From a virus, in the IMG/VR virus record IMGVR_UViG_3300027969_000046: a stretch of DNA of 64,000 bases, one strand, 5' to 3'. The notes below the pieces were generated by a model, which made no database searches, was not told the DNA's origin, and saw only the letters and a list, made by a program, of their open reading frames with translations. The translations under genes and the position numbers were made by a program. Shown in pieces: positions 38,604-43,802 of the stretch; position 1 is the stretch's first letter; every line of letters starts with the position of its first letter.

Positions 38604-38629
38604 AGACCCCTGCTTCGGCAGGGGTTTTT
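38604..38629. terminator. Terminator between convergent blocks
   Basis: ACCCCTGC-TTCG-GCAGGGGT-TTTT. Confidence 0.85.
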
Positions 38630-40304
38630 ACGTGGCTCTTGCCAACAAAGCACCGTTTGTGGAAGTATTATCCTTTGGTGCACCAGCAAGTTGAGTGTTT
38701 GTTGAATTATTATTATTGATTGTGGTATTCTTAACAATTATTGGTGCTGAAGGTTTGCTTTGCTGCCTTTGACCAACAGCAACATCATTAGACGCTTGAG
38801 AAACGGCTGATCCTGAAGTTGGTGCAGAAGCTTCGGCAGTTAATTTGGTGTCTTTAGTTCCCTTACTAGCATCAACGGCTTCTCCAGTTTTATTGGCAAC
38901 AATTGGAGCATCTCCTGTGCCAACAAGACCGGTAGGTTGAATATGCCAATCTTCATTTGGTACAGGTCTAGTTAAACCAAATTTCTCTAACCATCCTGTT
39001 GAAGCAGTTCTTGTTCCTGCTAATTCATTTAAGAAACCCATTGGACTGCCTGTGCCTTTTGGCCCAGCAGTCGGTGCAATATCAATTGCTAATTCTTTTT
39101 CGTGGAAACTTCTGCCAGGTTTAGCAGCTCGAGGCGAACCATACTTAGCGTATAGTTTAGCTTGTTCTTCCGTGCTTCTATAACCAGATGTAACAATTAA
39201 TTTTTTACCTGTTTTCTCTTTGAAGTCCGCAGCCATAGCGGCTAAGCGTTTTTCAAATTCAGAATTAAATTTCATATCTACACCAGAAGAAACACTAACC
39301 ACGGAACTCAAAGATGATGGCGCAGCTGCTTGAGCGCTTGGTCCCGAAGGTTTTGGTGTAGGTGCAGTCATTGGCGCTGGCGCTGTTGGTGCAGCTGCAG
39401 GCGCTTCAGTTACCATATTTGTCTTTGCACCACTTTCAGTTGTTACTGGTGTTTGTGTTGGTGCAGAACTTGGTGCAGGTTTTGGTTGTTCTTGTTTTTG
39501 AACTGGCGCTTGTGGTGCTGGTTCTGGTTGCTTAGGAGCTTCTTTAGTTTCAGTTTCAACCGATACTGCTTTTGGTTGAATACCAACACCTAAGAATTTT
39601 TTTACCTTATCAAACTTCTCTACAAATAAATCTCCAAATCCAAAAAACTCAGCAACAGATTTTAGAATTTTTTCAATTGCCCCTAATCCCCAATCATAAA
39701 AATCAGAAACCATTTTTTTATCAATTAAACCAAAAGTAAAGAATTCAACTATACCTCCAACTCCTGCCTTAAATGCTTCCCATATGGAACCAGTTTCTTT
39801 CCATGTATCAAAAGCGGATGTAAATCCTTCAAATAATGCGGAGAATATAATTAATGGTAATGCAAGGCGCCCAAGAATCTTCATAAAATTCTTAGGGTTA
39901 AAAATTGCTTTGAAACCTTTCAAAAGTTTTTCACCAATGGATACAACTTTACCGCCAACTTTTGTTGATTTGAATTTGTCAAACATCTTCTTGCCAACTT
40001 TGCCAAATAAACCAGTACCTTCTTCTTTCTTAATTGGTGTTACTTTTTTAGCAGTTCCTTTTTCTTGCTCAACAGATAATTTTCTTTCAGCTTCACCTTC
40101 TTTTAAGAAATGAGTATCTGCACCTTTTGCAGCTTTACCACCTCGCATCTTAACCATCTTTTGAAGATTCTGCCTAGCAACATTTAAATCTCTAGCAATA
40201 AATGGTAAACTAAGAAAACTTTTAGCAATTATTTTAGCTAAAATAACGGATTCGGATGGAGAAGAACTGACTGTTCTATCTATTGTTGGAGATTTATTTG
40301 CCAT
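38628..40304 (-). CDS. Tape-measure/baseplate-hub-like protein with M15 (D-Ala-D-Ala) peptidase domain
   Basis: Helical hydrophobic N-terminal part, P/A/T linker, TSGYRS...PGRSFH...AIDI...EDWH zinc-peptidase motif. Confidence 0.7.
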   Translation of the reverse strand: MANKSPTIDRTVSSSPSESVILAKIIAKSFLSLPFIARDLNVARQNLQKMVKMRGGKAAKGADTHFLKEGEAERKLSVEQEKGTAKKVTPIKKEEGTGLFGKVGKKMFDKFKSTKVGGKVVSIGEKLLKGFKAIFNPKNFMKILGRLALPLIIFSALFEGFTSAFDTWKETGSIWEAFKAGVGGIVEFFTFGLIDKKMVSDFYDWGLGAIEKILKSVAEFFGFGDLFVEKFDKVKKFLGVGIQPKAVSVETETKEAPKQPEPAPQAPVQKQEQPKPAPSSAPTQTPVTTESGAKTNMVTEAPAAAPTAPAPMTAPTPKPSGPSAQAAAPSSLSSVVSVSSGVDMKFNSEFEKRLAAMAADFKEKTGKKLIVTSGYRSTEEQAKLYAKYGSPRAAKPGRSFHEKELAIDIAPTAGPKGTGSPMGFLNELAGTRTASTGWLEKFGLTRPVPNEDWHIQPTGLVGTGDAPIVANKTGEAVDASKGTKDTKLTAEASAPTSGSAVSQASNDVAVGQRQQSKPSAPIIVKNTTINNNNSTNTQLAGAPKDNTSTNGALLARAT

Positions 40305-40305
40305 A

Positions 40306-42099
40306 TTACGCAGCTAAAAGTTTTGCAAATTCGGTATCGTAAACATCAACAATTTGTGGAGTTGGTTCTTTACCGGCTGAACTACTATTGTTTGTAACTG
40401 AAGAATTTGTGGTTTGATTACCTGTATCAGCGGCAGATTCCATTCGTTGCTGTTCTGCAATATCAGCCGAGGCTTTATCCAATTCGGAACCACTTGTTGT
40501 TGGTTCAGCATTCATTGGAGATGGAGTTGCATTAGCAGCTGAAGCAGATTTTTCATCAGATTCTACTGAACCACCAGAAGAACCACCACCAACGGCCGGT
40601 GCAGATGATTGTGGTTCTATTTTCTTTTCTTTTATTACATTTTCAATTTGTTCTTTAATTGTCTTATCTAATTCAGGACTTCCTGTTGTTCCTTCTTTTG
40701 CCATTTTTTGTGGATCAGGCAATGGCATATTAAGAAGTTTAGATGCTTGTTCAACAATTAATTTTTCAGCTTCTTTAGCATCTTTAGGTAATTCAAAAGA
40801 TGGTGAATTATCATTAGCTGATTCATTACCATACTTTTCTTGCAAAGCTTTAGCGTCAGCGGAATATCCACTCATACTGCCAGTTTTTGTATCTCCAGAT
40901 GGAGTTGGTGATGCAACTGGTGTTGATGAACCAGACTTAACATCAGCTACAGCTGGTGTTGTTGTCTTTTGGGGTTCTTCACTCTTTGGATCATTTTTAA
41001 ATGGATAGAATGGGCCAAGTGCAATCTCTTTTGGTGCACCAAGTTTTTGTAAAACGTTAGGAATAGGAATAGAGATTTTAGGAATACCAATATTATTGGC
41101 AACCCAATCTTTAATTGCTGTAAATGTTTCAGAAATTGATTGTATGATTGGGTTAATAAAACCCTCAACAGCATCAAACATTTTCTTAACACTATCCTCA
41201 CCAAATAAGCCAAATGTTAAGAAATCTACGATGCCGCCTAGACCTGCAATAATGGCATCTTTAATAGAACCAGTTTCTTTCCACTTATCAAATGCAGCTG
41301 TAATGCCTTGAAATAAAGCAGCAAATATCGTTGCAATTACAAATACTCTACCTAAAACTTTTAATAGATTAGCCGGACTAAAAATAGACATAATTCCTGC
41401 AAGTAATCCATTTTTAAAGAATCCAAGAATTGTATCTAATATGCCACTTTCTTTTTCTGGTTCTTTCTTTTCACCTTCTTTAGCTACTGGTTTAGGCGCA
41501 TATTTTTGCCTATCAACCTCTAATTTGGTTTCAGCCTCATCAGCTTTAAGAAAATAACTATCTGCACCAGTTCTTGCTTCAATTTGGTCTTTTTTACTTT
41601 TATTTTTATTGTATTCTTTTGCTTCCATCTTAACAAGTTTAACTATGTTTTGACGAAGCACATTCATATCTCTTGCCATCAAATGTAATGACAAGGCATT
41701 TTTAGCAATAATTTTTAGGAAAGAATTTAATTCGGAAAAACTACCAGATTCAACTGAACCTGCTGATGAAGGAGAGTTTTCATCTCCTTCTTTATTATCT
41801 TTAGACTTATCTCTAAACTTACCACGCATATAGGCAGAGAGTATATCATCTCCACCAAATGCACCCTTAATAAATTGTTTCTTAATATTTTTTGGGTCTA
41901 ATTTCTTTTCAAGTCCTTTTTTAGCATCAGAGAACCCACCCGTAATTGCTTCACCAAAACCGGCACCTTCCTCAAGACGACTTTTAACACTACCCGAAAA
42001 GTCATCACCATGCCCTTCGGACATTTTCTTTTTTAAGGCTTTAGCATCCTTGTAACCAAGTTCTTGTGCTAAAGCTTCGAGGATAGGTTTTTTTGCCAT
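40306..42099 (-). CDS. Tape-measure/baseplate-hub-like protein, paralogue of the downstream gene
   Basis: Shares ARDxNVxRQN, GADxxFLK and WKETGSI...GGIVxFxTFGL blocks. Confidence 0.65.
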   Translation of the reverse strand: MAKKPILEALAQELGYKDAKALKKKMSEGHGDDFSGSVKSRLEEGAGFGEAITGGFSDAKKGLEKKLDPKNIKKQFIKGAFGGDDILSAYMRGKFRDKSKDNKEGDENSPSSAGSVESGSFSELNSFLKIIAKNALSLHLMARDMNVLRQNIVKLVKMEAKEYNKNKSKKDQIEARTGADSYFLKADEAETKLEVDRQKYAPKPVAKEGEKKEPEKESGILDTILGFFKNGLLAGIMSIFSPANLLKVLGRVFVIATIFAALFQGITAAFDKWKETGSIKDAIIAGLGGIVDFLTFGLFGEDSVKKMFDAVEGFINPIIQSISETFTAIKDWVANNIGIPKISIPIPNVLQKLGAPKEIALGPFYPFKNDPKSEEPQKTTTPAVADVKSGSSTPVASPTPSGDTKTGSMSGYSADAKALQEKYGNESANDNSPSFELPKDAKEAEKLIVEQASKLLNMPLPDPQKMAKEGTTGSPELDKTIKEQIENVIKEKKIEPQSSAPAVGGGSSGGSVESDEKSASAANATPSPMNAEPTTSGSELDKASADIAEQQRMESAADTGNQTTNSSVTNNSSSAGKEPTPQIVDVYDTEFAKLLAA

Positions 42100-42290
42100 T
42101 ATCGTTTCGCTTGTTTTTGCAATTTAATTCGTTCTCTTTCTTCTTCAAGGTACTTCATCAATAAACTCAGGTAAATATTTCTTTCCCAAGGTAACATATT
42201 CTCAAGCTCAGTCAAACTATACTTGTGGTGTTGCATCAAAGCAAAGTTTGTCTGATAGTAGTTACCTAATGTATCATAACGAAAAATTAG
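42099..42290 (-). CDS. gp51: gp51-like baseplate hub assembly protein (first in-frame ATG at 42236; may be reached by -1 frameshift from gp26)
   Basis: LGNYYQTNFALMQHHKYSLTELENMLPWERNIYLSLL motif; not in ORF track. Confidence 0.8.
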   Translation of the reverse strand, partial: LIFRYDTLGNYYQTNFALMQHHKYSLTELENMLPWERNIYLSLLMKYLEEERERIKLQKQAKR

Positions 42291-43018
42291 ACGAAAAAAC
42301 TTTGGAGACCCTTAATCGTAATATCTTCTTCATATGCACATTTTGGACATTTGAAGTGGACATCTTTTTTGATTTCAGGCATTGTATCAAAGAATTTTTT
42401 AATCTTTTCTAAATCTTTTTGTTGTAGGTTATCTACAAATTCTTCCAATTCTTCTTTGGTAGAATCTTTGGCATAGTAGATTTGGTCTTTATCATAAATG
42501 TAATCAATACAATCAACCAAAATTTTAGTCATAACTTCTTCTTCGCTAATCGTATCATATCTTTGAATCATCTCAAAAGTAGGATATTTTAGGCAAATAC
42601 CAAGATTTTCAGTTAGCTGAACCTTGTTAGTGTGTTCTGGATTGATTGTTGGTTCTACTTCAAGGATATTCAATTTGAAAGAAACTGAGCCATTACATTT
42701 AACCTTAACACCTTCTTCGTTATCAACCTCATTGTTACATTTGTATTTTAAATCTACAACTTCTTCTACTGACCTAGCACGCAGGTGCATGAACAAGTAT
42801 TCCAAATCAAATGTTGGAAGATTGTCAACATCAATCTCATCCAAAATACAATTCTTCAATACCTGACGGATAGTATTAATGGTTTCTTTAGCATCATCTG
42901 CCTCAGAAGCCATTAAAAATAATTTTTGTTCCTTCACAAGAAACGGACGATATCTGATAGTTTTACCAGATGATATCAGTTTTACCGTATATGTTGGAAT
43001 GTCTAACTTTGGTAGCAT
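42287..43018 (-). CDS. gp26: Baseplate hub assembly chaperone gp26
   Basis: LPKL..PTY, YRPFLVKEQK, FDLEYLF..LRARSV.E, FFDTMP, CPKC, GLQSFF. Confidence 0.9.
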   Translation of the reverse strand: MLPKLDIPTYTVKLISSGKTIRYRPFLVKEQKLFLMASEADDAKETINTIRQVLKNCILDEIDVDNLPTFDLEYLFMHLRARSVEEVVDLKYKCNNEVDNEEGVKVKCNGSVSFKLNILEVEPTINPEHTNKVQLTENLGICLKYPTFEMIQRYDTISEEEVMTKILVDCIDYIYDKDQIYYAKDSTKEELEEFVDNLQQKDLEKIKKFFDTMPEIKKDVHFKCPKCAYEEDITIKGLQSFFV

Positions 43019-43037: not shown

Positions 43038-43802
43038 TTAAAAAATTCTACTAGTAATCGCCCTACCTAATGGCAATGCTGACACAGCAGCACTACCAAA
43101 TAACGCAGTTGCAGCCGCAGCCAGGTCATAAGACCCCTCGTAAATGGTGCGGTATTTTTGATAAGCAAATTGGACTGATAGACGATGAAACCCATCTTCT
43201 GACCAACTTAACTGTTGTGGTGCAATTCCAATTGGAAAAGCATCTATCAATTCGACAGCATGAATCTGTTTAATAAACTCATCATACTGTATAATTTTAA
43301 TGTTTGTCATGTACCGTGATTGAGCACCTTTTGGAAATCTCATGTTATTTGTATCGCCTGGATGAATTGATTCCATCCAACGGTCAAATAACTTTCTTTC
43401 ATAGAACTCATTGGTACATAAAAATGTAAGTGCTGTATCAGCGTATTGTGTTTGATATGGTACCTTAAATATGGGACCGTAAATCTTAACATCAGCTGTC
43501 TGTAATGTTTTACCAGGCAATTCAGCGTTTTCACATTGTAATGCTAAATATCTGGACAAAGAAGAATTGGATGTCTTTGAATATTCGTCTTGTGTTCCTT
43601 GACGACCAAACGCCGAACCAATGGCATCACTCACATCGGTGAATACAGAGTTAGGGAAATTCAAAATCTTATTAATGATTGAATTGCCAACAAAACTATT
43701 GATGTATGGTGGAATAGGAAGAATAACCTCAAAGCGAGAAGGCTTTGCAAGTCCGTCCTTTGCTCTTATATTCGATAAAAATAAATTTGGTGAAAATGAC
43801 AT
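43038..43802 (-). CDS. gp54: Baseplate tail-tube initiator (gp54/gp19 family)
   Basis: GLAKPSRFEV, CENAELPGK, FDRW, IIQYD, AFPI, VQFAY. Confidence 0.7.
   Translation of the reverse strand: MSFSPNLFLSNIRAKDGLAKPSRFEVILPIPPYINSFVGNSIINKILNFPNSVFTDVSDAIGSAFGRQGTQDEYSKTSNSSLSRYLALQCENAELPGKTLQTADVKIYGPIFKVPYQTQYADTALTFLCTNEFYERKLFDRWMESIHPGDTNNMRFPKGAQSRYMTNIKIIQYDEFIKQIHAVELIDAFPIGIAPQQLSWSEDGFHRLSVQFAYQKYRTIYEGSYDLAAAATALFGSAAVSALPLGRAITSRIF

Follow-up and report, generated by a model that had tools for sequence, protein, structure and literature searches.

The genome of an uncultured T4-like phage, the virus record IMGVR_UViG_3300027969_000046, carries a gp26-like gene whose 3' end overlaps a gp51-like reading frame. 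From this overlap and its conservation in related loci we conclude that a -1 ribosomal frameshift very probably makes a 306-amino-acid (aa) gp26-gp51 form beside the 243-aa gp26 form, and that the pair would work like the tail assembly chaperones (TACs) G and GT of phage lambda. The functional part of this proposal is based on synteny, fold, the lambda model (review, PMC5009743) and T4 genetics. The window referred to below is the whole stretch of DNA that was analysed, 64,000 nucleotides (nt) in length. A prediction made earlier by a model from the letters of this stretch, called the original prediction here, had proposed the fusion of the two reading frames and had regarded gp26/gp51 as the T4-like equivalent of G/GT.

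The gp26-like open reading frame (ORF) ends on the minus strand with AGT (42301-42299) TTT TTC (42295-42293) GTC TAA (42289-42287), and the T-run is read as the heptamer T TTT TTC in the X XXY YYZ phase. The original prediction had described this end and its heptamer, and every coordinate was verified. A stop lies in the -1 frame four codons upstream of the heptamer, after which the frame is open for 66 codons (FF-RLIFRYDTLGNYYQTNFALMQHH...) to the TAA at 42101-42099; from the heptamer onward it reads FF-RLIFRYDTLGNYYQTNFALMQHHKYSL... The predicted long product consists of gp26 residues 1-242 followed by 64 residues, i.e., 306 aa (...GLQSFF-RLIFRYDTL...). The 0-frame product matched PF12322 (T4_baseplate) with an E value of 2.8e-62 over residues 8-242, and phrog_150 with an E value of 3e-70. 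The -1 extension matched phrog_634, 'baseplate hub assembly catalyst' (gp51), with an E value of 2.1e-26, and it also matched positions 234-280 of phrog_150, the last 47 positions of that profile. A Pfam search with the extension returned one spurious sub-threshold match and nothing else. The earlier statement that the -1 frame is open past the heptamer, with gp51-like residues before the first ATG (42236), agrees with the phrog_634 match and with the 20 conserved codons described below. PF12322 and the gp51 domain each occur once in the window, and a T4-style pair of full-length genes 26 and 51 was not found within it. The positions of the features are collected in Table 1.

Table 1. Features at the gp26-gp51 junction and its neighbouring genes, in window coordinates
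Feature	Position	Strand	Basis or remark
Tail-tube-family protein (gp19/gp54-like), upstream neighbour	43038..43802	minus	phrog_45 'tail tube' E 5e-34; weak PF06841
gp26-like gene, 0 frame, 243 aa (short product)	42287..43018	minus	ORF list, PF12322, phrog_150
Purine-rich AAGGGT (Lys-Gly codons), tentative Shine-Dalgarno-like stimulator	42308..42313	minus	GGG ends 9 nt 5' of the heptamer
Slippery heptamer T TTT TTC, X XXY YYZ phase in the gp26 frame, proposed -1 slip site	42299-42293	minus	Sequence and conservation
-1 extension, 64 codons (RLIFRYDTLGNYY...QAKR), gp51 C-terminal domain	42102..42293	minus	Translation, phrog_634
0-frame stop TAA, one codon past the heptamer	42287..42289	minus	Sequence
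First canonical -1-frame starts, TTG (42239-42237) and ATG (42236-42234)	42234..42239	minus	ORF list; codons 20-21 after the heptamer
-1-frame stop TAA, overlapping the next gene's ATG (42099-42097) as TAATG	42099..42101	minus	Sequence, ORF list
Tape-measure-like protein, 597 aa, downstream neighbour	40306..42099	minus	phrog_15478 'tape measure' E 0.11 only
Second tape-measure-like paralog, 558 aa, VanY/M15 peptidase domain	38628..40304	minus	PF02557 E 3.8e-8; phrog_16823 'tail length tape measure' E 1.2e-7

The junction was surveyed in 195 loci that have both parts, taken from annotated phages and three IMG/VR scans. The sources were cyanophages, a pelagiphage, Vibrio, Pseudomonas and Sinorhizobium phages, and IMG/VR contigs; the annotated phages sampled were P-SSM2, Sf-CH11, S-CAM7, HTVC008M, Vibrio K575, phiM9, pf16, Moby, S-CAM1 and ACG-2014e. 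The loci gave 137 unique junction contexts, and they formed 91, 34, 20 and 13 clusters at 90, 70, 50 and 40% gp26 identity, respectively. The gp51 domain was in the -1 frame relative to gp26 in 195 of 195 loci, and in-frame and +1 arrangements were each found in none, so that the relative frame, on whose constancy the original prediction depended, did not vary among the relatives. An in-phase T TTT TTN was present within the short overlap of all 195 loci, the last base being C in 180, T in 14 and G in 1. The run at the slip site was T6 in 92% of the loci and T7-T8 in the remainder, and the 0-frame stop came 0 or 3 nt past the heptamer in 186 loci and 24 nt past it in 9. The codon before the run was AGT, AAT, GAT, TCT, GCT or GGT (Ser, Asn, Asp, Ala or Gly) and always ended in T. 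Both the heptamer and the -1 frame hold in 20 clusters with less than 50% gp26 identity, including those of P-SSM2, Sf-CH11, S-CAM7, HTVC008M, Vibrio K575, phiM9, pf16 and Moby. Conservation of the heptamer at gp26-gp51 junctions, a check named together with the original prediction, thus extends to synonymous positions across lineages of less than 50% protein identity.

A few rare ORFs in which the two parts are fused in one frame (P0123-P0125, P0134, P0135, P0139 and P0143) were met as well. Their closest IMG/VR relatives (L090 at 80% and L125 at 95% identity) have the ordinary -1 arrangement, and the best 150 cluster representatives from a search of 1.84 billion proteins all end at the junction; therefore, the fused ORFs were taken as rare indel variants or sequencing errors and not as evidence. 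P0125 reads GSTGFF-RIALSH where its relatives L090 and L091 read GAQDFF in the 0 frame, which fits an insertion of 1 nt about 10 nt upstream of the T-run, not inside it. This insertion may be a natural variant or a sequencing error.

The surveyed loci share ancestry and are not phylogenetically independent, and exact p-values are accordingly not meaningful; those given below are to be read as upper bounds on significance. Since all of the loci descend from one ancestral module, the overlap, the heptamer and the frame could have been inherited from the common ancestor as a neutral relic that has no recoding function. We regard such a relic as highly improbable. The heptamer survives replacement of the preceding residue, and it is kept in every lineage at 25-45% protein identity, where synonymous sites are saturated, which argues that it is not neutral. 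In addition, the T4-type genes 26 and 51, which do not need the heptamer, have lost it.

The background frequency of such sites was obtained from Phe-Phe pairs elsewhere in the open frames of these loci, which were heptamer-compatible in 36 of 433 unique cases (8.3%), 10 of them being T TTT TTC specifically. The ORFs of at least 120 aa in the window contain 27 Phe-Phe pairs, among which the gp26 site is the sole T TTT TTY, and none of the other 26 pairs is compatible. It is also the only pair encoded as TTT TTC; 15 of the 27 are TTC TTT, even though TTT outnumbers TTC threefold overall. This preference suggests that slippery T-runs are avoided elsewhere in this genome. Judged by these sequence comparisons, a heptamer in the right place and phase is far beyond chance.

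The same T-run could act at the level of transcription, with RNA polymerase adding one U in the U6-U8 run so that a fraction of the mRNAs fuse the two frames. The site is a homopolymer, the protein made would be identical, and the avoidance of T-runs in the other Phe-Phe pairs of the window fits either kind of slippage. Selection on run length, however, would favour TTT TTT T, whereas the last base of the heptamer is C in most of the loci, and the run is always in the X XXY YYZ phase. In several lineages a hairpin is present 4-8 nt downstream (z-score, z, of -2.5 to -5.6), which is the spacing expected of a ribosomal stimulator. With six residues, moreover, the run is rather short for a bacterial RNA polymerase to slip on it efficiently. 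For these reasons transcriptional slippage appears quite unlikely as the source of the fusion. Both ribosomal and transcriptional slippage are treated in the passages of the recoding review drawn on here (PMC5009743).

With respect to independent initiation, a start at the TTG or ATG at 42239/42236 would give only a 46-aa peptide that is missing the 20 conserved residues upstream. In the window's clade, which comprises 76 loci with 36 unique downstream sequences, no ATG, GTG or TTG occurs across the 20 conserved codons past the heptamer. Variable sites in these codons numbered 8, 5 and 15 at codon positions 1, 2 and 3, respectively, and the amino acids are nearly invariant while synonymous changes are many, e.g., five Leu codons at one invariant Leu. 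This pattern indicates translation in the -1 frame for the 20 codons that separate the heptamer from the first ATG. In the survey as a whole, the stretch from the upstream -1 stop to residue +12 past the heptamer is free of ATG, GTG and TTG in 58 of the 137 unique junctions. Among them are those of the window's whole clade, of HTVC008M and pf16, and of the cultured cyanophages S-CAM1 and ACG-2014e. For the last two, GenBank has about 180 nt of unannotated sequence (L212:913-1098 and L211:913-1095, respectively), in which the full gp51 domain follows T TTT TTC in the -1 frame, with no ATG ahead of the conserved residues. In some lineages a -1-frame stop lies immediately 5' of TTT TTT.

T4 itself offers a comparison. 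The T4 proteins gp26 and gp51 act as hub assembly chaperones, the latter being required yet absent from the particle (Leiman et al. 2010, PMC3004832). The two genes are divergently transcribed in T4, Klebsiella KLB8, Aeromonas phage 25 and Shewanella Thanatos-2. T4-type gp51 (249 aa) comprises PF12322 (E value 2e-45) and about 50 C-terminal residues matching the window extension, and it spans phrog_150 end to end; gp26 has PF12322 only. When 19 conceptual -1 products were aligned with the T4-type proteins by MAFFT, there was no gap at the junction against gp51, and the T4-type gp26 ended 3-4 residues past the aligned Phe-Phe, as did the window 0-frame product. T4 gp26 (208 aa) and the window 0-frame product are thus alike in consisting of PF12322 and in ending with GL-x-x-FF and 1-3 further residues, and the predicted long form of the window is collinear with T4 gp51, PF12322 being followed in it by the phrog_634-matched C-terminal domain. 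T4 thus encodes as two genes exactly the short and long forms that a frameshift would give here. No heptamer was found in the T4-type genes, where the Phe-Phe of gp26 is encoded by TTC TTT and the corresponding site of gp51 is GTG TTT AAG and similar. T4, Aeromonas phage 25, Thanatos-2 and KLB8 therefore differ from the window in having two separate paralogous genes and no slippery site, whereas the window has one gene and a predicted frameshift for both forms. Since its genes 26 and 51 are divergently transcribed paralogs, T4 itself cannot frameshift, and on this point the original prediction has to be refined. As a prediction for the window, the equivalence to G/GT is supported by the frame, the heptamer, synteny, the TAC fold and the collinearity with gp51.

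In a tree of the PF12322 domain, the T4-type gp26 proteins, the T4-type gp51 proteins and the single-gene lineages formed three clans, the last with a support of 96/86; the root is unknown and long-branch attraction was flagged. A duplication of the PF12322 gene in the T4 lineage is weakly compatible with this tree. In Escherichia phage CBA120 (Ackermannviridae), about 520 nt are unannotated after a gp26 that ends with GAG ATT TTC ATT TAA (L208:2200-2770). The -1 frame past this gp26 holds a gp51-like domain (F-HLIFEIDLL...MPWHLDL) that has no start close by, and the site has a U_UUC tetramer only, not a full heptamer. Recoding may extend to the Ackermannviridae in such a variant form.

Possible stimulators of slippage were looked for on both sides of the heptamer. 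RNA structure was evaluated in windows 3-48 nt past the heptamer and in control windows inside gp26. The downstream windows were more structured than the controls (mean z of -1.5 vs -0.35, Mann-Whitney p 0.005). This structure is significant in some of the lineages, with no common register. In the cyanophage-like lineages, strong hairpins (z down to -5.6) begin 4-8 nt past the heptamer and enclose the ATG there. P-SSM2 (L001:2665-2695) and related cyanophages have a stable hairpin of about 10 bp, 5 nt past the heptamer and around the annotated gp51 ATG, with z of about -4 to -5.6; a hairpin of this type could stimulate frameshifting, mask independent initiation, or both. On the upstream side, the Glu or Lys codon before an invariant Gly, about 9-10 nt from the heptamer, is preferentially GAG or AAG over GAA or AAA, which creates a GAGG/AAGG element (137 junctions, Fisher p 2e-12 and 6e-7). 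This enrichment was not evident among the 20 cluster representatives. A specific efficiency for U_UUU_UUC was not obtained from Sharma et al. 2014 (PMC4066793).

The structure of the short product was modelled with AlphaFold2, for which the predicted local distance difference test (pLDDT) score was 93.6 for the window gp26 and 89.9 for the naturally fused ORF P0125. The window gp26 model has an N-terminal domain of TAC fold (about residues 1-90), a beta-rich domain with four Cys, and a C-terminus that reads GLQSFF-V-stop. The four Cys (residues about 94-107 and 225-228), which include a CPKC motif, sit in the beta-rich second domain; some gp26 homologs are labelled 'RNA polymerase subunit M/TFIIS' by the Joint Genome Institute (JGI), which suggests a zinc-ribbon-like element, and the same region of T4-type gp51 retains only a CC pair. 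The models were compared exhaustively with 48,161 PDB chains using VIA-align. For the window gp26 model, the first four matches were 3fgx, an uncharacterised Geobacillus protein (Z 7.5), 3klu, YqbN (Z 7.3), 2ob9, the HK97 tail assembly chaperone (Z 7.2), and 5ir0, the PLE tail assembly chaperone (Z 5.7). YqbN belongs to the XkdN-type TAC family. All four matches cover gp26 residues 1-90 and most of the target chain, with 82-85 residues aligned, and the next unrelated match had a Z of 4.6 or less. The P0125 model gave 2ob9 at Z 7.7, 3fgx at 7.4, 3klu at 6.7 and 5ir0 at 4.8, with the TAC structures at ranks 1, 2, 3 and 5 and the next unrelated match at a Z of 5.0 or less. The name of 5ir0 is given in PMC12987554.

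The locus belongs to a T4-like baseplate module. On the minus strand this module consists of gp4, gp2, the tube-family gene, gp26, gp51 and two tape-measure-like paralogs, and on the plus strand of gp48, gp53, a hub protein, gp5, gp25 and gp6. The order from the tube-like gene through gp26 and gp51 to the tape-measure-like genes is common to the window and its relatives. In the HK97 record, the major tail subunit is followed by gp13 and the -1 frameshift product gp13-14, and then by the tape measure. The position of the pair directly before the tape-measure-like genes, as originally described, is borne out by the gene order in the window and in its relatives. The positional equivalent of the 597-aa protein in HTVC008M is annotated as 'putative tail tape measure'. 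The 597-aa and 558-aa neighbours are paralogs that share several sequence blocks, and the VanY/M15 domain is in the second only. The 0-frame stop of gp26 is 188 nt upstream of the start of the 597-aa gene, and the stop of the gp51 domain overlaps that start; the 597-aa gene may depend for its translation on coupling to the frameshifted minority of ribosomes, or it may have an independent start without an obvious Shine-Dalgarno sequence.

Besides the shared ancestry of the surveyed loci, several points weigh against the proposed frameshift and its likeness to G/GT. In about half of the lineages, not including the window's, an ATG is present 2-5 codons past the heptamer, and it sometimes overlaps the stop (TAATG or TGATG). 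In those lineages translational coupling could thus plausibly yield gp51 as a small free protein. The window's clade showed no significant RNA structure downstream (z of -0.6 to -0.9). Foldseek against PDB gave nothing significant, with 2ob9 only in 27th place, and hhalign of the gp26 profile against HK97 gp13 gave a probability of 0.1%, i.e., no sequence homology; the relationship to the TACs is for this reason one of fold. The window proteins matched none of the Phage_TAC Pfam families, and phmmer against PDB sequences gave no match. The N-terminal residues of gp26, about 90 in number, appear from the models to share the TAC fold, with Z values that are middling, and homology is not claimed. 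Finally, the tape-measure identity of the downstream genes is tentative at the E values in Table 1.

The nearby ATGs raise the alternative that no fusion is made at all, the gp51 domain being a free small protein produced by independent or coupled initiation and the T-run being conserved for another reason. In the window, the start of such a protein would be the near-cognate ATT at 42287-42285, reached by termination-reinitiation, or the TTG/ATG discussed above. An ATG lies just past or overlaps the stop in many lineages (TAA-GT-ATG in cyanophages, TAATG in Vibrio K575, TGATG in phiM9 and Moby), their gp51 is annotated as a separate gene, and the codon at position 20 of the extension is always ATG, GTG or TTG in the window's clade. 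A free protein is nevertheless hard to reconcile with the junctions that have no canonical start ahead of the conserved residues, or with the purifying selection on the 20 codons 5' of the window's first ATG. The ATT, which overlaps the gp26 stop as TAATT, is not conserved as a start, because the aligned codon elsewhere is ATA, ATC, ACA (in one clade member), GTA, GTT, CTA or ATG. The alternative also leaves unexplained the six different T-ending codons before the run, the use of TTT TTC against the genome's preference for TTC TTT, and the gap-free collinearity with the in-frame T4 gp51. We consider this explanation unlikely. Independent initiation of gp51, which had been set against the original prediction from the beginning, is thus opposed by the start-less junctions, the window's clade among them, while the remaining junctions, having a nearby ATG, leave room for it.

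For the -1 ribosomal frameshift, we propose the following course of events. Most ribosomes would finish gp26 at its stop and yield the 243-aa short form. A minority would slip back by one base with the Phe tRNAs on T TTT TTC, then read CGT CTA ATT... and add the 64-residue gp51 domain to give the 306-aa long form. The TAC-fold part may bind the tape-measure-like proteins encoded just downstream, and the rare long form may, through its helical C-terminal domain, link that complex to the hub or to a tube-initiating protein. Neither form would end up in the virion. In T4 itself, gene 26 encodes the short form and gene 51 the long one, in frame; the two genes are duplicated and divergently transcribed, and T4 therefore needs no slippery site.

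This arrangement resembles that of other long-tailed phages. A conserved -1 frameshift in the tail assembly chaperone genes, which gives gpG/gpGT in lambda and gp13/gp13-14 in HK97, is described by Xu, Hendrix and Duda (2004), as reported in the passages of the recoding review drawn on here (PMC5009743). As in these systems, two ORFs overlap at the locus in the window, flanked by a tube-family gene on one side and by tape-measure-like genes on the other, and the first of them has an in-phase X XXY YYZ heptamer a few codons ahead of its stop. The second lies in the -1 frame and has no start of its own, and the short and the predicted long products share their N-terminal part, which has the TAC fold (2ob9, Z 7.2-7.7). 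The HK97 record annotates the fusion as a joined coding sequence, whereas the fusion here is predicted from sequence. There are further differences from lambda and HK97: sequence similarity is not detectable by hhalign against HK97 gp13, gp26 is twice as long and has the extra beta-rich domain with four Cys, and the T4 homologs act in central-hub assembly and are not described as tube or tape-measure chaperones. The slippery heptamer of lambda is G GGA AAG, while that found here is T TTT TTC. The tau/gamma frameshift of E. coli dnaX is also similar, in that the heptamer comes late in the 0-frame ORF, about 9-10 nt downstream of a purine-rich GAGG/AAGG element and, in some lineages here, 4-8 nt ahead of a hairpin. 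The dnaX frameshift, however, truncates the protein, whereas that proposed here extends it, and the candidate stimulators are not significant for the window itself.

Full-text literature searches found no published report of a gp26/gp51 frameshift, and gp26, gp51 and the T4-like phages are unmentioned in those passages of the 2016 recoding review (PMC5009743). T4-like phages have hitherto not been counted among the long-tailed phages that make their tail chaperones by a -1 frameshift. We think it probable that this tail-chaperone frameshift spans most of the T4 superfamily, i.e., the Kyanoviridae, the pelagiphages, and the KVP40-like, rhizobiophage, pf16-like and Moby-like phages, perhaps together with the Ackermannviridae through the U_UUC tetramer. 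Genes 26 and 51 of T4, which have long been enigmatic, would on this view represent a G/GT pair 'resolved' by duplication, with gp26 as the abundant tape-measure/hub chaperone and gp51 as the rare 'catalytic' long form; in the other phages, the efficiency of frameshifting would set the dose of that form. If this is true, the pair would provide an example of a frameshift-encoded pair replaced by two duplicated genes, and hundreds of cyanophage, pelagiphage and vibriophage genomes, in which the small 'gp51' ORF has an arbitrary start or is unannotated, would need a correction of their annotation. It would also give a functional reading for T4 genes 26 and 51 and a testable model for both proteins, with short and long chaperone forms acting on the tape measure and the hub, and it would account for gp51 being needed yet absent from the particles.

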